36,292 bases of DNA from a virus (Duplodnaviria > Heunggongvirae > Uroviricota > Caudoviricetes). The translations under genes were made by a program, and so were the position numbers. The stretch's first letter is position 1. Each line of letters begins with the position of its first letter. Shown one piece after another: positions 717-36,292 of the stretch. Location of the stretch: positions 1 through 36,292 of IMG/VR virus record IMGVR_UViG_2877285697_000006; one strand, given 5' to 3'. Under the pieces are notes generated by a model, which was not told the DNA's origin, did not search any database, and saw nothing but the letters and a program-made list of their open reading frames with translations.

Positions 717-757
717 TCTAATTTGGTGGGTGTAATTCCCACCGCTTTTTAAATGGA
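717..757 (+). terminator. hairpin repeat copy 2 acting as rho-independent terminator (GGTGGG-tgtaatt-CCCACC + GCTTTTT)
   Basis: 6-bp GC stem, 7-nt loop, T-run 746-750 directly after the stop of ORF 273..710. Confidence 0.55.
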
Positions 758-850: not shown

Positions 851-973
851 ATGAAACAATTTCATGATGGCATTTCATCTAAGACATTCAAGAAAGAATA
901 TTCGCTGTGTATTAACTGGATTGATTTGATTGGTGCGGTTGTGTTTGGTCTGATTATTAGCATTAACTTTTAA
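851..973 (+). CDS. small protein (40 aa) with hydrophobic C-terminal segment
   Basis: ATG at 851 preceded by GGGTGA SD-like sequence; not in ORF track because under 60 aa; C-terminal LIGAVVFGLIISI looks like a TM helix. Confidence 0.3.
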   Translation: MKQFHDGISSKTFKKEYSLCINWIDLIGAVVFGLIISINF

Positions 974-1018
974 TGATATAAATATATCGTAATTCAAACA
1001 ACAAGAGGAAATTCTACT

Positions 1019-1438
1019 ATGAAAAAGATTATCGCTGGTGTTGTTCTTGCTCTGGGTTTGGTTGGTGCTGCGAATGCTAATACCTATACCTATTATGTGT
1101 GCAATTCCTACTTCGAATATAAAGGAGATGATACACGCTACCTGAGTGATGGCGACCGTTATTATCATGCGCCGTCTGGCAAATACCGTAGTTTTATCGG
1201 TGTAAAGGTTCGAGTGAATGATGATAATAGTCAATTTGCTTTCAACGATCCGGTATTTGATAAAACAATCAAAAGCCCAAAACTGAAAGAAGATAAGAAC
1301 GAGAAAGAAGAATATTATGGTTCCGAAGATGGTAAATCCTACATCAAATATCTGCATTCTGTAGATGGCGCGCCTATATTTGATGTTAAAAAAGGTGATA
1401 CGTCTTATTCCCTGATTAGCTGCCGTGAAATTCTTTAA
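1019..1438 (+). CDS. secreted protein with N-terminal signal peptide (139 aa)
   Basis: MKKIIAGVVLALGLVGAANA signal-like N-terminus; SD AAGAGGAAA 7 nt upstream; antisense ORF 875..1357 judged spurious. Confidence 0.6.
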   Translation: MKKIIAGVVLALGLVGAANANTYTYYVCNSYFEYKGDDTRYLSDGDRYYHAPSGKYRSFIGVKVRVNDDNSQFAFNDPVFDKTIKSPKLKEDKNEKEEYYGSEDGKSYIKYLHSVDGAPIFDVKKGDTSYSLISCREIL

Positions 1439-1452
1439 TCTTTAATCACCTA

Positions 1453-1489
1453 GCCCCTATCGTTATAATACGCGGTAGGGGCGTTTTTG
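1453..1489 (+). terminator. hairpin (GCCCCT...AGGGGC) followed by GTTTTT
   Basis: 6-bp GC stem with long loop then T-run, after stop of 1019..1438. Confidence 0.35.
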
Positions 1490-1501
1490 TTTGGAAATGG
1501 T

Positions 1502-3181
1502 ATGAAAACTAAACTGTATTCGTATATTCGCTTCTCGTCTATGCGTCAGAATGATGGTTCGAGTTATGAACGACAAATCAGGATGGCTAGAGAGATTGCG
1601 GTAAAGTATGACCTTGAACTGGTAAATGATTATCAGGATCTGGGTGTATCTGCGTTTAAGGGTGCTAACTCCAAAACAGGGGCGCTATCTCGTTTCCTTG
1701 ATGCAATAGGTAGATCCGTTCCTGTTGGTAGCTGGCTATTCATCGAAAACTTGGACCGTTTATCCCGTGCCGATATTGTCAGTGCGCAGGAGTTATTCCT
1801 TTCAATCATCCGTAGGGGGATAACCATTGTTACTGGCATGGATAACAAGATCTACTCGCTTGATACTGTTACCGCTAACCCGATGGACCTGATGTTCTCC
1901 ATCCTTTTATTCATCCGTGGTAATGAGGAAAGCCAGACTAAGCGCAATCGTACTAACTCAAGCGCACTGATTAAGATTAAAGCTCATCAAGAAAATCCAC
2001 AAAATCCGGCTGTTGCAATCGAGGAAATTGGAAAGAATATGTGGTGGACTGATACCACATCTGGTTATGTGCTTCCTCATCCGGTCTTCTTCCCTATTGT
2101 TCAGGAAGTTGTGGAATTACGCAGGAATGGACGGTCAACCGCCGAGATACTGGATCACCTTAACGCGACATACACACCACCACCAGCCGCAAGTCACAAG
2201 AGGCATTCAAACTGGTCACGGGCAATGATTGAAAGGTTGTTCCATACCCGCGCTTTGATTGGTATCAAGGAAATCTCTGTAGATGGCGTTAAGTATGAGT
2301 TAAAGGATTATTATCCTCGTGTGCTAGATGACGCTGAGTTTTATCACCTTAAGAAAAGCATTGGTGTTAGAGCATGTAACTTTGGAGACAAAGAAGAAGC
2401 TAAACCTATTCCCTTGCTTAGTGGTGTTGGTCTATTGAAATGTGAACATTGCGGTTCCGCTATGGTTAAGGTGAAAGGAACAAACAGACGGCCTAACCAA
2501 TATCGTTATTCATGCGATGCAATGCGCTCTAGTCGTATTGAATGTGTGCATACAAACTGGAGTTTTCGCGGCGACCAATTAGAGAAAGCTGTATTGCAAT
2601 TGCTGGCTGATAAAATCTGGATTGCTGAAGATAAGGCTAATCCGGTTCCGGCTTTGAAAGTACAGATTGATGAAATATCACGCAAGATTGATAACCTGAT
2701 TACCCTTTCTGCTATGACAGGAGCAACGAAGGAGCTAGCCGATCAGATTACTACCCTCAATAGCGAGCGTGAAACACTCTACAATCAACTTAAGATGGCA
2801 GAAGAGGAAATGTATTCTGTTGACTCTCAAGGCTGGGAGAAGCTCGCAGAATTTGATTTAGAAGATGTTTACAACGAGGATCGCATTAAGGTCCGGTTTA
2901 AGATTAAGCAAGCTCTAAAACGGATCGGGTGTAGCAGGATTGACAAGTACAAAAACTTGTTTGTACTGGAATACATCGATGGCAAGACCCAGAGAGTTGT
3001 AATAGAAAATTCAAGAGGACCGAGGAAAGGCCGGATCTTCGTTGATTTGAAGACTATCAATGATAGGCAGATTCTGGAGAGTAACGGGCTTGTTCTGCAT
3101 CCATGTTTAGACATGCTGACAGATAAGAACTGGAAACCAGAAGAAGAAATACCAGGTCCATTACAAGAATTTGGAATTTAA
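1502..3181 (+). CDS. large serine recombinase (serine integrase-like)
   Basis: N-terminal resolvase-type catalytic domain (YSYIRFSSMRQ...LDRLSR), ~560 aa, zinc-ribbon CEHCG...YRYSCD...IECVH; start taken at MKTKLY rather than track start 1487. Confidence 0.8.
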   Translation: MKTKLYSYIRFSSMRQNDGSSYERQIRMAREIAVKYDLELVNDYQDLGVSAFKGANSKTGALSRFLDAIGRSVPVGSWLFIENLDRLSRADIVSAQELFLSIIRRGITIVTGMDNKIYSLDTVTANPMDLMFSILLFIRGNEESQTKRNRTNSSALIKIKAHQENPQNPAVAIEEIGKNMWWTDTTSGYVLPHPVFFPIVQEVVELRRNGRSTAEILDHLNATYTPPPAASHKRHSNWSRAMIERLFHTRALIGIKEISVDGVKYELKDYYPRVLDDAEFYHLKKSIGVRACNFGDKEEAKPIPLLSGVGLLKCEHCGSAMVKVKGTNRRPNQYRYSCDAMRSSRIECVHTNWSFRGDQLEKAVLQLLADKIWIAEDKANPVPALKVQIDEISRKIDNLITLSAMTGATKELADQITTLNSERETLYNQLKMAEEEMYSVDSQGWEKLAEFDLEDVYNEDRIKVRFKIKQALKRIGCSRIDKYKNLFVLEYIDGKTQRVVIENSRGPRKGRIFVDLKTINDRQILESNGLVLHPCLDMLTDKNWKPEEEIPGPLQEFGI

Positions 3182-3185
3182 GCTA

Positions 3186-3443
3186 ATGAAGATGATTAAG
3201 ATTTTAGGTTTGATTTTATCTATGAATTCTTGCTTGGCATTGGCAACCGTAGACCAAGAAATGCGTAGACCGCTAACCTATAGAGAAGATGCTTTCATTG
3301 ATGGAGCACATAAGACATTGAAATTGCTATGTCAAAAGACCACCAGTAATTACGATGAATACAGAAAATGTTATGAGGAATCACTAGACATTTATTCTGA
3401 TGAGGTGAGAAAGATTTTCATAGAACAAGAAAATAAATCATAG
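3186..3443 (+). CDS. small secreted or lipoprotein-like protein
   Basis: MKMIKILGLILSMNSCLALA signal-like N-terminus; start ambiguous between 3171 and 3192. Confidence 0.45.
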   Translation: MKMIKILGLILSMNSCLALATVDQEMRRPLTYREDAFIDGAHKTLKLLCQKTTSNYDEYRKCYEESLDIYSDEVRKIFIEQENKS

Positions 3444-3525: not shown

Positions 3526-3723
3526 CTATAATTGGCTTAAATCAAGCTCTAGGTCTTCCGGTTCTTTCATTACTTCAACCAGAGACGGATCTACTTCGTC
3601 AAAAACGACTTTATCGTCTGCGGTATATTTGTCTATAATGAAAAAATGGTCAGAAATATAGCTTACGTCGCCAGCATATTCTAACAAAAAAGCGCCCACC
3701 AGAGGCGCTTTTGTTTTATCCAT
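3526..3723 (-). CDS. doubtful 65-aa ORF
   Basis: Open frame only; its 5' end is occupied by a terminator hairpin and it overlaps the endolysin stop. Confidence 0.2.
   Translation of the reverse strand: MDKTKAPLVGAFLLEYAGDVSYISDHFFIIDKYTADDKVVFDEVDPSLVEVMKEPEDLELDLSQL
3686..3717. terminator. bidirectional hairpin terminator (AGCGCC-caccagag-GGCGCT) with A-run upstream and T-run downstream
   Basis: GC stem flanked by AAAAA at 3686-3690 and TTTGTTTT at 3710-3717; just downstream of the endolysin stop on the minus strand. Confidence 0.45.
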
Positions 3724-4069
3724 TCCACCGTGATTTTTTTGATCTGGAATCGATATGCGTAAATGTTTTATATTTTCCTAAGCCGTATTGAGTAGGATAT
3801 TTCCCATCAAGATAAGCATGAACAATATCAGGCGAGACACCCTTGATAACAATGTCAGCCGCGCGGCCTCGAACATGATAGCTATTGGTTGCGCCGCCTA
3901 CATTCTTGTTATGAGTCGGGCAACGGTTCCCACTGTTAATAATCACTGGTTTACCGAAGTGCTCTCGTACATCCTCAAGAATCACCAGTAATTCAGCGTC
4001 GATTGTATCATAATCACATTTTCCGCATTTACATTTAAATTCCTTGCGAGAAAAATGCTTACTTAACAT
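3716..4069 (-). CDS. endolysin, peptidase M15 family (L-alanyl-D-glutamate peptidase type)
   Basis: 117 aa with zinc-peptidase motifs (SGNRCPTHNKNVGGATNSYHVRGRAADI ... FTHID); SD AGGGGG upstream. Confidence 0.75.
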   Translation of the reverse strand: MLSKHFSRKEFKCKCGKCDYDTIDAELLVILEDVREHFGKPVIINSGNRCPTHNKNVGGATNSYHVRGRAADIVIKGVSPDIVHAYLDGKYPTQYGLGKYKTFTHIDSRSKKSRWNG

Positions 4070-9500: not shown

Positions 9501-9919
9501 TATTCACCCCCGAATCTATAAACTTGTTCATAGTCAATGTCTGAAACAGGAATGGTCATCCAGATACCATCTTCTTCAACGAGGCCATAACCGGAATAAT
9601 GAGGAACTACGGAATAATAATTACGGTTTCCTAATTTGTGGGCTGTGACCAGTAAGTCGCCGTCCTGTAAATCATCAGTGACTAATTTGAAATGTTTCTT
9701 AATTGGTTGAAGGATATTTGAATACCCGCTTAATTCTTTGCAGATTTTCAAGCCTTCTTCTTTAGTTGAATATTTTTTATAAAGAGAATTATATAGGTCA
9801 GTACCAGCGAGAATATCGATGATCTTACATGCAATGAGATTGCAATCATTCTCACCCTGAACGAACTCCTGACCTATTAAAGAATTGATGTAATCGGTGA
9901 TAAGCCTAGTTTTTAGCAT
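9500..9919 (-). CDS. tail tip protein, gpK-like (possible NlpC/P60-like)
   Basis: Position between L-like and J-like genes; start placed at MLKTRL after SD GGAGGT; track ORF extends to 10075. Confidence 0.4.
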   Translation of the reverse strand: MLKTRLITDYINSLIGQEFVQGENDCNLIACKIIDILAGTDLYNSLYKKYSTKEEGLKICKELSGYSNILQPIKKHFKLVTDDLQDGDLLVTAHKLGNRNYYSVVPHYSGYGLVEEDGIWMTIPVSDIDYEQVYRFGGE

Positions 9920-9965: not shown

Positions 9966-10619
9966 TTATTTCTTCGATGAATGCCACTTGCTTTCTGATT
10001 GCCAGCGACCCGCCCTTGAGAAGAATAGATCGTTCTCGTTTCCGGCGTATGATCGGTGGATACCATCGGAGGCATGACTACGAGCGTTTTTATCTAGAAC
10101 TTCCCAGATACTATTAAGCTGAAATTCTGATTCGTTTTTACACTCATCATCTTCATGTTCGATGTTAATCCCGATGGAATCGACTACCCCACGGAAAACA
10201 GGGTAAGTTGTTTCAACCTTGCCCGTGTTGGGGTTAAGGAATACCATTTCGATTTTCACATCTGATTTATCGAATTGCTTATTACGAATGAGAGTAATGT
10301 ATTCCTCGCGAACGTTAGAAACGGTTACGTTAATCCCGTTGTTGTTGATCTCCTTCTCTTCGGTATTCGATGAGATTTGAAGAAAATCGCCCGTTGCGAG
10401 ATATGTAAATCCGTTATAGTCCAAATCGAAATACCCATCTGTAAGCCGTAGAACGTCCCCTGACGCTGTTATCACTTCGATAATGTGAAACATCGATCCA
10501 GTGGAAAAAAGCTGCGGTAGCGTCAATCTAGACACGTTCTGACCTGTCTGGTCGTTGTAGACCTCGATGAAGTCCAGATTAGTGCATAGTTTGCTGAATG
10601 ATTCCTGAATAGTTGCCAT
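9966..10619 (-). CDS. minor tail protein, gpL-like
   Basis: Position after M-like gene; ATG overlaps upstream stop (TAATG); start at MATIQ. Confidence 0.45.
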   Translation of the reverse strand: MATIQESFSKLCTNLDFIEVYNDQTGQNVSRLTLPQLFSTGSMFHIIEVITASGDVLRLTDGYFDLDYNGFTYLATGDFLQISSNTEEKEINNNGINVTVSNVREEYITLIRNKQFDKSDVKIEMVFLNPNTGKVETTYPVFRGVVDSIGINIEHEDDECKNESEFQLNSIWEVLDKNARSHASDGIHRSYAGNENDLFFSRAGRWQSESKWHSSKK

Positions 10620-11179
10620 TATACATTCTCCACTAATTCGAATTTCATCTTGCCAATCTGGGCGATCTTCCAATCGATATTTTCAGTTTTGAGAACAAAT
10701 TCACCTTCTACGTTCTGATACTTGATCACCTCACCAGCCAGGACGTTTTGACGCAAGTTAGGGAAGAGTTTCATTTCACCACCTGATTTCACGTCTTCGG
10801 TGATCGTGTAGATTTTCTTGTGGTTCTCAAACTGGATGATAGTTCCTGCTTTCAGTGTTCCGGTGAAGTTGGAGATTCTCACCTTACGCCCACCGCGAGC
10901 AGTACCAGCAGCAGCCGTTACCATCTGGCGTACATCACCTGTATATTTTGAAAAGTAAGACAGTGGCACACTAAAAGGACGACCAAAAAGGTGACGTGCT
11001 ACAAATTCTTTTACTTCGTTAATATCCTGAGCCATGTAATTCGCTGTAAATTCTGCTTCGTAAAAATGGATGCCAGTAAAGCGACGCTGGAACTTACCGG
11101 AGATAGATTGCGCCTTGAAGAAAGGCTGTTTTGATTTAAGAGTAAAATCTGTGATTTTAATATTCTTGGATTTGAACAT
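10619..11179 (-). CDS. minor tail or distal tail protein, gpM-like
   Basis: Immediately downstream of tape measure gene; ATG start at 11179 preferred over track GTG start at 11215, which lies inside a hairpin. Confidence 0.4.
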   Translation of the reverse strand: MFKSKNIKITDFTLKSKQPFFKAQSISGKFQRRFTGIHFYEAEFTANYMAQDINEVKEFVARHLFGRPFSVPLSYFSKYTGDVRQMVTAAAGTARGGRKVRISNFTGTLKAGTIIQFENHKKIYTITEDVKSGGEMKLFPNLRQNVLAGEVIKYQNVEGEFVLKTENIDWKIAQIGKMKFELVENV

Positions 11180-11185
11180 AGAAAA

Positions 11186-11225
11186 AGCCCCCATAGTTTT
11201 ATGATTATTTATCACTATGGGGGCT
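11186..11225 (-). terminator. long hairpin (11-bp stem AGCCCCCATAG/CTATGGGGGCT) plus U-run between tape measure and next gene
   Basis: Perfect 11-bp stem with 18-nt loop; followed on the minus strand by TTTTT then the start codon. Confidence 0.35.
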
Positions 11226-11230
11226 TTTAA

Positions 11231-13660
11231 TTACATCTTACGGCGCTGTGCGTCTTCTACCGCCTGAGCAACTAACTTAGCGTGACGTTTGATAGCATCC
11301 ATGACCATCTTGTCTGAGCTATTAACGTTGCCGTTAATGTTCAAAGGCGCATTAACTTCAATCGGTTGAGAGTTGCCACCGCCTGATTTTTGAGCAGAAA
11401 GGAAGTCTTTCAAATCACCGTTGGTACGCTGATCAACTACTCGTTCACCCTTATCAAGCAACCACGTACCTTCTTTGGGGATACTGTCAATACCATCATG
11501 TGACATTCCTGTTAAATTTGTTGATTTAATGTTGGCAATATTTCCCATGTTCTGAGAAACAGCCAATGCAGCAGCAGCGATTTTTTGACCTGTGGTTACG
11601 TTGGTCGGATCGTTCCATGCATCGGTAGCAGCCGTCCACATGTTCATCGTCGCTTGTCCGATAGAGAATGCTTTATGAGCATTGAAAGCCATCTGCATAG
11701 CTTTAGTGTTTTCCTGCCCGAAAAGAGTCATTGCAGCAGCAAAACCGCCATACATATCATCGGCTATTGACTGGCGAGCATCAGCATATTTCTTTTCAAT
11801 TGCAGCCATCCGTTTTTGATGGTTTTCATTGAGTTTTTCTAATGCTTCCATCCGTTTAGCCGGATCGGTGATCCCATCAATCTTGAGTTTATCGGTCTTA
11901 TAATCTTGTTCAGCATCCGATTTCTCTTTATCGATTGCATTAAATTTAGCAAACGGATTATTTGAGTCTTGATAATCATAACCACTAGTTAATTGATTGG
12001 TTTTATAACCATCCATTCCCTGTAAAGAATTTTCAATCTGAGAATAGTTTTGCTCGGTATCGTTCACACGACGCATATATTCTTCGTAGGAGATAGCTTT
12101 ACCATCAAGTAACCGTTTATGGCTTTCTAGCTCGTTGTCCCTGATTTGTTGCAATTGTGTTAAAGCATTCAGAGCATCAATCGGATCAGCACCCAACATC
12201 ATTTTATAAACGTTTTCAGTATTCTGATCGATTAGCGCCTGGCGTTTCGCGGCTGCGTCTTCCTGAGAGATTAAGCCCAGAGCTAACGCGTCGTTCACAT
12301 CTTTTAAGCTGTTTTGCAACTGGCTATTTTGAGAAGTGATAGACGCTGCAACTTGCCCTTGCAATTTAACATCAAGTGCATTCAGTCGCTTGATTGCATC
12401 CTCGCGTGCTTTCTGTGCTTTTTCTGCGGCTTCCTTAGCCTTTTTAGCTGCCTCTTCCGCTTTCTTTTTGGCTTCTTCCTCGGCTTTCTTCTCGTTGCCA
12501 GACTTACCCAATGAAGCTGGTCGAGTTGGTGTAGTCGGGATAGTCAAATCACGGTTAGGATCTGCCTTACGGGTTAGATGTTCCCCGTTATCGACAACAA
12601 TCAGAGAGCCATTTTTCTTATAAGAATCACCAAAACGTTTCTTAAATCCTTCAACATCAAAGCCAGCAGTACGAGGATCGACACCAGCACCACGGATCGC
12701 GGCCTTTTCCCAATCTGCCAGATTATTCCAACGCTTTTCTTTATTGTACTTGTCAATAATCTTTTGAGCGTCTTTATGGTTGGCGTTAAGAATACCACCA
12801 GTTGCGGTCTTACCTTCTTTATTCAGACGGTCTAATGCCCTGAATAGAGAACTCTTTTCCCAATCAATATTAAACCATTCGAATAACCAGTTTAAACTAT
12901 CAACCAAAGGACCAGTAATGGTCATACCGACACCTTTCAGGTTATTTTCCAGCTTATTGATATTTTGAGAAAATTTATCATATTTTTTAGCGTTTTCTTC
13001 GGTGACGTTAACAGATTGATTCTGAATAGCGATCATCGCCTCTTGAGCACTATTATATTTCTCAAGCTGGCTGGTCATATGGCTTGAATCACTGGCCAAA
13101 GATTCCATCATGAACTTGATTTCAGCCATTGATTTTCCTGCTTTCTTCAGGTCATAGAACACTTGGATCGCCGCTTTCATACCACCTTGCGGATCAGTCA
13201 TGAAGTGAGCATAGTTTTCTAACTTAAGGCCAACCGATTCTAAATCATCGGCAATACCACCACCGTTAGCCCATGCATCACCCATTTTATCTAAGGTGTC
13301 TTTGTTGATATCACCAAATTTTTCAACTGTTAAGCCAGTACCAGAGAACTCCTTTTCTAATTTTTGAAGGGATTCAATCGAGAGTCCGGTCGCCTTAGAT
13401 ACTTCTGAATACTGTTTAACGTATTCCGCGCCAGCTTTAGCGGCTGCAAAAACTGCGGTCGCAACTAAGCCGATACCACCAGCAGCCAAACCAGCAGAGC
13501 CAGCGATCCCACGAAGAGATCCAGTCAAACCAGACAAACCACCGCCAAAATCGATATTACTTGCCTTTTCAGACAAACTATCTAGAAGGTTAGCGGCTTC
13601 ATTGGTACTTCTCCTTAGACCTTTATTATCCCCTTCTATTGTTACTATATGTTTTGTCAT
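11231..13660 (-). CDS. tail tape measure protein
   Basis: 809 aa, alanine/glycine-rich N-terminus, long coiled-coil and lysine/glutamate-rich repeats, position after G/T chaperones. Confidence 0.85.
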   Translation of the reverse strand: MTKHIVTIEGDNKGLRRSTNEAANLLDSLSEKASNIDFGGGLSGLTGSLRGIAGSAGLAAGGIGLVATAVFAAAKAGAEYVKQYSEVSKATGLSIESLQKLEKEFSGTGLTVEKFGDINKDTLDKMGDAWANGGGIADDLESVGLKLENYAHFMTDPQGGMKAAIQVFYDLKKAGKSMAEIKFMMESLASDSSHMTSQLEKYNSAQEAMIAIQNQSVNVTEENAKKYDKFSQNINKLENNLKGVGMTITGPLVDSLNWLFEWFNIDWEKSSLFRALDRLNKEGKTATGGILNANHKDAQKIIDKYNKEKRWNNLADWEKAAIRGAGVDPRTAGFDVEGFKKRFGDSYKKNGSLIVVDNGEHLTRKADPNRDLTIPTTPTRPASLGKSGNEKKAEEEAKKKAEEAAKKAKEAAEKAQKAREDAIKRLNALDVKLQGQVAASITSQNSQLQNSLKDVNDALALGLISQEDAAAKRQALIDQNTENVYKMMLGADPIDALNALTQLQQIRDNELESHKRLLDGKAISYEEYMRRVNDTEQNYSQIENSLQGMDGYKTNQLTSGYDYQDSNNPFAKFNAIDKEKSDAEQDYKTDKLKIDGITDPAKRMEALEKLNENHQKRMAAIEKKYADARQSIADDMYGGFAAAMTLFGQENTKAMQMAFNAHKAFSIGQATMNMWTAATDAWNDPTNVTTGQKIAAAALAVSQNMGNIANIKSTNLTGMSHDGIDSIPKEGTWLLDKGERVVDQRTNGDLKDFLSAQKSGGGNSQPIEVNAPLNINGNVNSSDKMVMDAIKRHAKLVAQAVEDAQRRKM

Positions 13661-35305: not shown

Positions 35306-35512
35306 ACTGATCACGTTTTAAAATCTCACACGCACATCAAATACCGGGGTGCCGAAAACTCCCTTTATTTCATCCGTGGAACAGTACCTTTTTAATTTGT
35401 CAAGCATTAATTTCTTAATTTAATTACTAAATCTCATCCCAATAATTGAAAAAATATCAAAAATCAATAAAGTAAGCATCTAAAAGTCAGTCCATACCAA
35501 AAGAGGTATAAA

Positions 35513-36292
35513 ATGAAAAACATTATCGCTGCTATCGTTCTTTCTGCTACTGCTTTCGGTGCTAATGCTGCGTCCTTTGATTGCACTAAGGCTACTACCA
35601 AATCAGAGAAGTTTATTTGTGCTAATGAGTCAATCTCCGCACTGGATTCGAAACTTCATGAAGTATATGTTAAGGCTGTTAAGATTGATCCGTCTCTTAA
35701 ACAAGAGCAACGCAACTGGAATAAAACTGTTCGTGATACAATGATCAATATCGGGCAGATTCAGCCACTGGAGGCTGTATACAACGCTCAAATCCAAAAC
35801 TTGATGAATGTATTATCTAAAGAAGAAACCGCGTCAGAGAGCGATTCAGAGACTTCTGCGAAGATTGAAGAAGAACAACCGAAACAGGAAGAAGTAAAGA
35901 AACTGAATGTTACCGCGATTTATGCATGTACTACAAAATTTACATGGAAAGTTATCGATGGTGAGGAAACAGAAGCTGTAAAAGATAAACTCTACGGAAA
36001 CAAAACTTTTGATAATAACGGCGGTAAACTTAAGATCAAAATGGTAGACGATGTTCCTGTATCTTTTGTGTATTCCGACAAGTATGATGTTTATAAATCA
36101 AGTCTCAAGCCATCTAAAGAGAATCCAAACGCAATGGAAGGTAAATCCAAACAGGATGCTATTGGACGTGTTAACACTTATAACATCTGGGTAAGCAAAA
36201 AAGGTGACATGCGTCTTGAAGTAATTGAACCAAAATTTGATTCTGAATATAAACACACTCAATTTGCATGTGACATGGTAGACGCAGAGTAA
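35513..36292 (+). CDS. secreted DUF1311/LprI-like protein (259 aa)
   Basis: Signal peptide MKNIIAAIVLSATAFGANA then ASFDCTKATTKSEKFICANESISALDSKLHEVY, fitting the LprI N-terminal domain pattern. Confidence 0.6.
   Translation: MKNIIAAIVLSATAFGANAASFDCTKATTKSEKFICANESISALDSKLHEVYVKAVKIDPSLKQEQRNWNKTVRDTMINIGQIQPLEAVYNAQIQNLMNVLSKEETASESDSETSAKIEEEQPKQEEVKKLNVTAIYACTTKFTWKVIDGEETEAVKDKLYGNKTFDNNGGKLKIKMVDDVPVSFVYSDKYDVYKSSLKPSKENPNAMEGKSKQDAIGRVNTYNIWVSKKGDMRLEVIEPKFDSEYKHTQFACDMVDAE

Follow-up and report, generated by a model that had tools for sequence, protein, structure and literature searches.

The stretch of DNA analyzed here, positions 1 to 36,292 of IMG/VR record IMGVR_UViG_2877285697_000006 (hereafter the window), is a 36.3-kb prophage bounded exactly by its first ATG and its last stop codon. 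We focus on two open reading frames (ORFs) predicted to encode exported proteins, ORF A (35513..36292, 259 aa) and ORF B (1019..1438, 139 aa). Both are present as described in a first-pass annotation of this sequence, with translations beginning MKNIIAAIVLSATAFGANA and MKKIIAGVVLALGLVGAANA, respectively. Several complete Escherichia coli chromosomes contain the same element, which splits the antitoxin gene hicB in two halves: the C-terminal remnant ends 36 bp ahead of window position 1, and the N-terminal remnant starts ~250 bp past position 36292. The host phage is temperate and integrates into hicB by means of a serine recombinase. ORF A is the last gene before the attachment site attR, and on the excised circle attP lies between ORF A and ORF B, which share a strand and are ~1.3 kb apart. 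Their location at opposite ends, to which the first-pass annotation drew attention, is an artefact of linearization, because the map is that of a linear prophage integrated in hicB. The coordinates of all features are listed in Table 1.

The description of ORF A as DUF1311/LprI-like was borne out by profile searches. Pfam family PF07007 is matched with 26.2 bits, above its gathering score of 22 (expect value (E) 1.1e-5), a precomputed match to this family is present on most members of the ORF A family, and the homologues are labelled 'lysozyme inhibitor LprI family protein' in RefSeq. Structure prediction, suggested in the first-pass annotation as a check, was performed with AlphaFold2 (AF2). 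The model of ORF A consists of four helices (residues 30–105, predicted local distance difference test (pLDDT) ~85), a disordered acidic stretch (106–129) and an all-beta region (132–258, pLDDT ~88); that of ORF B is a single barrel (pLDDT >90). ORF A is thereby predicted to contain an all-helical domain in an exported protein, as is characteristic of PF07007.

The cysteines of the two barrels are placed alike in the models. Cys139 of ORF A lies in strand 132–148 and Cys253 in strand 245–258; in ORF B, Cys28 is in strand 23–35 and Cys135 in strand 128–137. These are the barrel's only invariant cysteines in each family (four cysteines are invariant in the whole of ORF A, where they make up two predicted disulfide pairs, and two in ORF B). 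From the models we infer that a disulfide joins the first and last strands of both barrels, matching what defines MliC and PliC, and the C-terminal half of ORF A is predicted to be a disulfide-stapled eight-stranded barrel of the MliC/PliC/ACP fold. In the barrel structure comparison, outer-membrane barrels, Cap15 and TbpB lobes reached similar scores. A search of PDB sequences with the profiles of both ORFs gave chance-level matches only, and the NCBIfam search returned nothing meaningful.

The first half of ORF A is nearly identical in DNA to a gene of strictly lytic phages. When the right end of the window was compared with the phage collection by megablast, 59 Krischvirus genomes (RB49-like, T4-type) matched positions 35513–35893 at 96–98%, and no similar prophage was found. 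The match begins at the Shine-Dalgarno sequence and start codon and stops inside the linker. Over these first 381 nt (~97% identity) prophage and RB49 differ at 11 bases, in 8 synonymous and 3 non-synonymous codons, and the divergence between RB49 and the Krischvirus phage GEC-3S over the same region is about equal. Past the linker, the DNA of the C-terminal domain is 40–60% identical to Krischvirus, and identity is back to 78–86% across the final 30 nt of ORF A and the next ~75 nt. Just outside the window lies a 25-codon stub closed by a stop codon (MQFNSMKITQKWWDAMKANHQNDIN), a truncated copy of RB49p261, the next Krischvirus gene (9771–9848 of chromosomal locus L002, ~12–90 nt past window position 36292; L002 8913–8940 corresponds to window 35446–35473). 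This stub marks the extent of the DNA taken from the lytic phage.

The closest allele of ORF A is found on a metagenomic Krischvirus-like contig, in a gene between gp52 and holin t, with 73% protein identity in the barrel and 63–88% DNA identity over the barrel's first half. The GEC-3S homologue has an annotated sigma-70-type promoter directly upstream and belongs to a block of early genes flanked by gp52 and holin t. Judged by this annotated promoter and by position, the homologue of ORF A is an early accessory gene of lytic Krischvirus phages. Given the ~97% match over 381 nt and the RB49p261 remnant after the stop codon, the simplest history would be that a Krischvirus early gene, together with the stub of its neighbour, was captured beside attR of a temperate phage. 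A Salmonella relative of the prophage carries T4-type recombination functions, namely a UvsW-like helicase and UvsY-like proteins (10105–12044 of locus L012/L013); because of these genes, we suggest that the prophage lineage swaps genes with T4-like phages beyond ORF A.

The two halves of the protein differ sharply in conservation. Across 21 cluster representatives of the ORF A family, residues 1–120 (signal peptide, LprI domain and linker start) are almost invariant, and beyond residue 120 only Cys139, Gly150 and Cys253 are retained. At least three C-terminal types exist among which hhalign detects no similarity: that of ORF A and RB49, another found in other hicB prophages, and a single helical outlier. 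Two Krischvirus barrel alleles are 47.5% and 27.5% (RB49) identical to ORF A, in genomes otherwise ~97% identical here. A profile of the barrel searched against 1.84 billion representatives retrieved nothing outside its own cluster, and a search widening the family of the N-terminal domain added only six short single-domain proteins. The combination of a constant N-terminal domain with a barrel of fast turnover fits the signature of an arms race. Variation by a diversity-generating retroelement was considered and rejected: the window contains no template repeat of the C-terminal domain, and the variation involves indels and mutually unalignable types.

The genes that flank the ORF A homologue have ~40–60% DNA identity between RB49 and GEC-3S, in genomes otherwise 97–100% identical. 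Because these genes diverge too, the barrel appears to sit inside a wider hyperplastic patch. The neighbours that drop in identity are a small upstream gene and the downstream gene (RB49p261 versus BN201_0262). Linker length in the ORF A family varies through repeat units. The repeat is a EEQPKQEEKVVE(E/Q)PKVE-like unit, duplicated for example in P0012 (alignment columns 120–155), and its DNA may serve as a recombination junction for the swapping of barrels.

Table 1 Features of the window and their coordinates
Feature	Position	Strand	Remarks
ORF A, 259-aa exported protein: LprI/DUF1311 domain, linker and beta-barrel	35513..36292	+	Stop codon included
ORF A signal peptide, residues 1–19, predicted cleavage ANA/AS	35513..35569	+	Rule-based call; AF2 pLDDT <50 at residues 1–18
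Helical LprI/DUF1311 domain, residues 20–105, invariant Cys24 and Cys36	35570..35827	+	Pfam PF07007; AF2 helices 30–105; near-invariant in 20 of 21 cluster representatives
Acidic disordered linker, residues 106–130	35828..35902	+	Length-polymorphic; identity breakpoint
Hypervariable eight-stranded beta-barrel (predicted), residues 131–259	35903..36289	+	Invariant Cys139 (first strand) and Cys253 (last strand)
Segment 95–100% DNA-identical to Krischvirus (RB49, GEC-3S, others) early gene RB49p262	35513..35893	+	
Shine-Dalgarno AAGAGG of ORF A	35501..35506	+	6 nt 5' of ATG
Sigma-70-like promoter match TTGAAA-16-TAAAGT, AT-rich intergenic region 5' of ORF A	35446..35473	+	Consensus match only
ORF B, 139-aa exported single-domain beta-barrel (predicted)	1019..1438	+	Cys28 and Cys135 in first and last strands
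ORF B signal peptide	1019..1078	+	
Shine-Dalgarno AAGAGG of ORF B	1003..1008	+	
Extended -10-like TGaTATAAA, inferred promoter	974..982	+	
40-aa ORF with hydrophobic C-terminus, directly 5' of ORF B	851..973	+	~60% identity in Salmonella relative
Strong intrinsic terminator 3' of ORF B	1453..1482	+	11-bp stem, 7 GC pairs, T-run
Second intrinsic terminator	724..744		Closes the operon preceding ORF B
Large serine recombinase (integrase), directly 3' of ORF B	1487..3181 (RefSeq start 1502)	+	Resolvase, Recombinase and Zn_ribbon_recom domains
Prophage endolysin, Peptidase_M15_3	3716..4069	-	Not a muramidase

The N-termini of both ORFs have a lysine-containing n-region, a hydrophobic core (Kyte-Doolittle 9-mer maxima of 2.9 in ORF A and 3.1 in ORF B) and A-N-A at positions -3/-1, and neither contains a lipobox. 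Signal peptides were called by a rule-based heuristic; scanned in this way, the window contains four signal-peptide-like starts, and those of ORF A and ORF B are much clearer than the other two. Residues 1–18 of ORF A have AF2 pLDDT values below 50, consistent with a signal peptide. The invariant cysteine pairs imply an oxidizing compartment, which backs the call. By these rules both products carry canonical Sec type I signal peptides, in agreement with the periplasmic targeting first suggested for them.

The signal peptides had also been described as near-identical, which overstates their similarity: identity is ~55% (7 of the first 10 residues). The claim that the start regions resemble each other in DNA held for a short match of 26/30 (28/33) bases and the shared AAGAGG, but there is no alignment upstream of the Shine-Dalgarno sequence. 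The first 33 coding bases are 85% identical (blastn E 1.6e-4), the start region of ORF B is the top non-self blastn match of ORF A within the window, and the pair ranked first among 54 signal-peptide-like or transmembrane-like N-termini from RB49 and the window. An unrelated protein, RB49p192 (158 aa, RB49 117899–117423), begins MKKIIAIAVVAALSMTNVAHA (MKKIIAIAVV...) and is close to both, with 6–7 of 10 residues and 21–23 of 30 bases in common with ORF A or ORF B. MK[KN]IIA is a recurring start in this gene pool. The likeness of the two starts is real, yet it is within reach of convergence because unrelated RB49p192 is nearly as similar; constraints on signal peptides together with AT-rich codon usage would explain it. 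It establishes no functional link between ORF A and ORF B and is weak evidence of anything.

Common descent offers another explanation, with ORF A and ORF B as paralogues, ORF B being an ORF A-type gene without the LprI domain and linker. In addition to the matching first 33 nt, the barrel of ORF A and mature ORF B align by BLASTP from the first cysteine (26% identity over 122 residues, E 2e-4), are reciprocal best tblastn matches within the window, and share the same fold class and the same pair of first- and last-strand cysteines; a Smith-Waterman shuffle test gave z 5.3, and 6 of 5000 shuffles did as well. However, the profile–profile comparison by hhalign assigned the pair a probability of <5%, other cross-family pairs reached z of only ~0–2, the barrel profile did not reach ORF B among the 1.84 billion representatives, and ORF B, searched against viral folds, retrieved no Krischvirus LprI-family proteins. 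The similarity of the RB49p192 signal peptide weakens the argument from the starts. We conclude that the two barrels belong to the same fold class and that their kinship is unproven; we judge paralogy unlikely.

The family of ORF B comprises eight clusters from E. coli and Salmonella. A tblastn search found no match to ORF B in 50,697 phage genome records, and no foreign source was detectable. In diverged relatives (43–65% identity) ORF B always lies ~60 bp 5' of the serine recombinase. The Salmonella relative occupies a different chromosomal site, yet the order of ORF B and recombinase is kept. Based on this conserved order, ORF B is a fixed integrase neighbour in this prophage lineage rather than a sporadic moron. 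The first-pass annotation had considered both ORFs moron-type genes, and this holds for ORF A, which is foreign DNA next to attR with its own Shine-Dalgarno sequence, a promoter-like site and a terminator-like hairpin 3' of the gene (L002 9948–9972, followed by the hicB remnant). ORF B resembles a moron in part only, with terminators on both sides, yet it is a conserved fixture.

The 45-nt spacer in front of ORF B (974–1018) has hardly changed in a Salmonella prophage, where ORF B itself is down to 43% identity. The product of 851–973 may be a small membrane protein whose gene, together with the promoter, forms a cassette with ORF B. Residues 78–90 of ORF B (window 1250–1288) contain P..DK.I.SPKLK, invariant in a family otherwise 43–65% identical and a candidate functional barrel loop. 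Searched against viral folds, ORF B weakly matched phage lipoproteins and lipocalin-like proteins. ORF B probably encodes a further periplasmic protein, a binder or an inhibitor, that moves together with the integrase module.

Typically ~50% of E. coli DNA is G+C, far more than in the window (41.8%; 37.8% in ORF A and 38.3% in ORF B). A large part of the right arm (27–34.5 kb) has no PHROG or Pfam match. Just 3' of the recombinase, a small ORF (3186–3443, + strand) begins MKMIKILGLILSMNSCLALA and has no family match; its product could be a third exported or lipoprotein-like candidate. In strain 14EC029 hicA (mRNA interferase), which lies next to the split hicB, is annotated as frameshifted, and insertion into the hicB toxin–antitoxin locus may have consequences for the host. 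The split of hicB at the two window ends is seen at L003 5845–5964 and L002 10013–10321.

By analogy with known periplasmic inhibitors, we tentatively propose that ORF A encodes a periplasmic inhibitor of a wall-cutting enzyme with a role in exclusion or immunity, a reading to which we give a real but clearly less than even chance. The protein would bind and neutralize a peptidoglycan-cleaving enzyme arriving from outside. The likeliest target would be the lysozyme at the tail tip of a T4-like phage that superinfects the cell, and alternatives would be a muramidase effector of a type VI secretion system (T6SS) or an animal lysozyme. The infected cell or lysogen would thereby be protected, by Spackle-like superinfection exclusion or by immunity. 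A shared activity or anchoring would come from the constant domain, and the exchangeable barrel would decide whose enzyme, among those of the competitors, is recognized, which would explain the allelic turnover of the barrel.

Several observations are consistent with this proposal. Lysozyme inhibition, an idea of the first-pass annotation, gains from the prediction that the C-terminal half is a barrel of the MliC/PliC/ACP fold. The documented roles of DUF1311/LprI proteins (LprI, Etsi4, ScwA) all concern peptidoglycan hydrolases, a circumstantial argument: DUF1311 proteins serve as periplasmic immunity proteins against cell-wall-targeting T6SS effectors (PMC12135965, PMC12981562), among them Etsi4 of enterohaemorrhagic E. 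coli, which confers immunity to a cell-wall effector (PMC12981562), and in Salmonella the LprI-domain protein ScwA, periplasmic and disulfide-bonded, has control over MltD as well as further hydrolases (PMC7933661). Both carriers of the gene, the prophage and Krischvirus, have M15 peptidase endolysins. No relationship between the two endolysins was found by BLASTP, though both belong to peptidase M15 families. Because these enzymes are peptidases and not muramidases, a muramidase inhibitor would not hinder the carriers' own lysis. In a tblastn search with T4 Spackle, which finds 927 phage records, no credible homologue was found in RB49 (best E 0.049, inside gene 41) and nothing in the window. 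The sole T4-lysozyme-like sequence of RB49 lies within gp5.

A number of results weigh against inhibition. The LprI name by itself is not evidence of it: ScwA carries the domain but plays no part in resistance to lysozyme (PMC7933661), and Brucella PhiA, which shares the fold and the disulfide, did not inhibit in vitro (PMC8334348). With LprI inhibiting lysozyme and ScwA not, the literature is mixed (PMC7933661). The PF07007 match spans residues 24–76 of ORF A and profile positions 1–71 of 106, a partial model. Neither ORF matches PF09864 (MliC), even at E up to 1. The lysozyme-contact motifs SGxxY/SxSGAxY and YxxxTKG, as defined in PMC5507604 and PMC8334348, are absent from the ORF A barrel, and ORF B lacks the full motifs, with only SGKY/SGEY, one residue short. 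PADLOC gave no match. It is also odd that the variable domain, and not the constant one, resembles known inhibitors.

The missing contact motifs would be accounted for if the barrel bound a component of the host envelope, such as a receptor in the outer membrane or an entry factor of the periplasm or inner membrane, or bound the tail tip of the incoming phage, and blocked adsorption or DNA entry without inhibiting an enzyme, comparable to T5 Llp acting on FhuA or to T4 Imm. Masking proteins of this kind are well known in superinfection exclusion (PMC9586334). A predicted periplasmic protein that is early in a lytic phage and borne by a prophage would suit such a role, a hypervariable barrel is what is expected of a binding surface in an arms race, and the weak resemblance in fold between ORF B and phage lipoproteins or lipocalin-like proteins points in the same direction. 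However, masking leaves the conserved LprI/DUF1311 domain unexplained, given that its documented roles concern peptidoglycan hydrolases; ORF A has neither a lipobox nor a membrane anchor to hold it at a receptor, and similarity to Llp, Imm or Cor was not found. We regard masking as improbable on balance.

ORF A could instead act on enzymes of its own host, with the LprI domain tuning the levels or the activity of lytic transglycosylases or amidases and so stabilizing the envelope or timing lysis, both in infected cells and in lysogens. ScwA, an LprI-domain protein that controls MltD and other hydrolases (PMC7933661), is the precedent, and the Krischvirus gene lies ~2.3 kb from holin gene t. 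In contrast, host enzymes are conserved, so a hypervariable second domain would be unexplained, and the architecture of ScwA differs (LprI domain C-terminal, no barrel). This modulation of host enzymes seems to us quite unlikely. A lysogenic-conversion factor, in which a PliC/Ivy-like inhibitor of animal c-type or g-type lysozyme would aid E. coli lysogens in their hosts, draws on the match of fold and architecture to LprI/PliC and on the occurrence of prophages of this kind in clinical and livestock E. coli, but we consider it very unlikely, as the same gene is a conserved early one in strictly lytic phages, to which withstanding animal lysozyme would bring little obvious benefit, animal lysozymes are conserved whereas the barrel is hypervariable, and the SGxxY motif is absent.

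Returning to the periplasmic inhibitor, a broader version would make ORF A and its Krischvirus homologues a polymorphic exclusion or immunity locus, in which a constant DUF1311 scaffold carries a cassette-swapped barrel that chooses the wall-piercing enzyme or tail tip to be neutralized. The locus would substitute for Spackle in Krischvirus and move between virulent and temperate phages. We hold this version to be doubtful; if true, it would be a phage–phage arms-race module organized like polymorphic toxin–immunity systems. Should the proposed function hold, ORF A would represent a second class of phage periplasmic exclusion or immunity proteins, structurally unrelated to T4 Spackle, whose specificity domain is exchanged by recombination at a flexible linker, and it would offer a first way into the function of the combination of DUF1311 and barrel outside mycobacteria. 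If true, the transfer would show that genes have recently moved between T4-type phages that are strictly lytic and a temperate prophage of E. coli. Phage cocktails include members of Krischvirus, and the locus would then bear on the resistance of lysogens to therapeutic T4-like phages. Should the function fail, the locus is still a clear case of domain-level mosaicism in a phage accessory gene.

The gene family already carried a domain-based annotation, and a table published in 2006 hinted at DUF1311 for the RB49 gene (PMC1524935). New here are the predicted LprI-like two-domain arrangement with an orphan disulfide-stapled barrel, the pattern of constant and variable domains seen in the alignments, the apparent recent lytic-to-temperate transfer with a stub of the neighbouring gene, and the recognition of ORF A and ORF B as neighbours across attP.

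Comparison with known systems places ORF A among several periplasmic proteins. Its direct homologues are RB49p262 (RB49ORF260c) and PHROG 14799 and 4675, with N-terminal 120 residues ~97% identical and the same downstream neighbour, although the barrel of RB49p262 is only 27.5% identical and the RB49 and PHROG entries carry no functional annotation. Etsi4 and ScwA are likewise periplasmic DUF1311/LprI-domain proteins tied to peptidoglycan hydrolases, by neutralizing an effector or by tuning the level of MltD, but they are chromosomal, effector-adjacent (Etsi4) or stand-alone (ScwA), and neither is reported with a C-terminal barrel. With MliC, PliC, ACP and PhiA, in which the beta1–beta8 disulfide staple is conserved (PMC5507604, PMC8334348), ORF A and ORF B share, according to the models, an eight-stranded antiparallel barrel and a cysteine pair in the first and last strands. 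Neither ORF is a sequence member of these families, the barrels are larger (~115–125 residues versus 85–100), and the contact motifs are absent, as they are in ACP, which inhibits, and in PhiA.

T4 Spackle (gp61.3), an early protein of the periplasm, blocks gp5, the tail lysozyme of superinfecting phages (PMC7677548). ORF A has no sequence similarity to it and another architecture, Spackle being a small single-domain protein of 97 aa, and the target is demonstrated for Spackle whereas for ORF A it is proposed. Like Spackle, the product of the ORF A gene is, by prediction, an early, signal-peptide-bearing periplasmic protein of a T4-type phage, and the role proposed for it is the same. Mycobacterium tuberculosis LprI (Rv1541c; PF07007 and PF09864) combines LprI and MliC domains (PMC7933661). 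LprI is a lipoprotein; ORF A instead carries a site for signal peptidase I and lacks a lipobox, and it further differs in being phage-borne, in its long acidic linker and in a hypervariable barrel without a PF09864 match or the SGxxY/YxxxTKG motifs. The likeness is one of domain composition: both proteins are exported, and both combine an LprI/DUF1311 helical domain with an eight-stranded barrel, which in ORF A is predicted.

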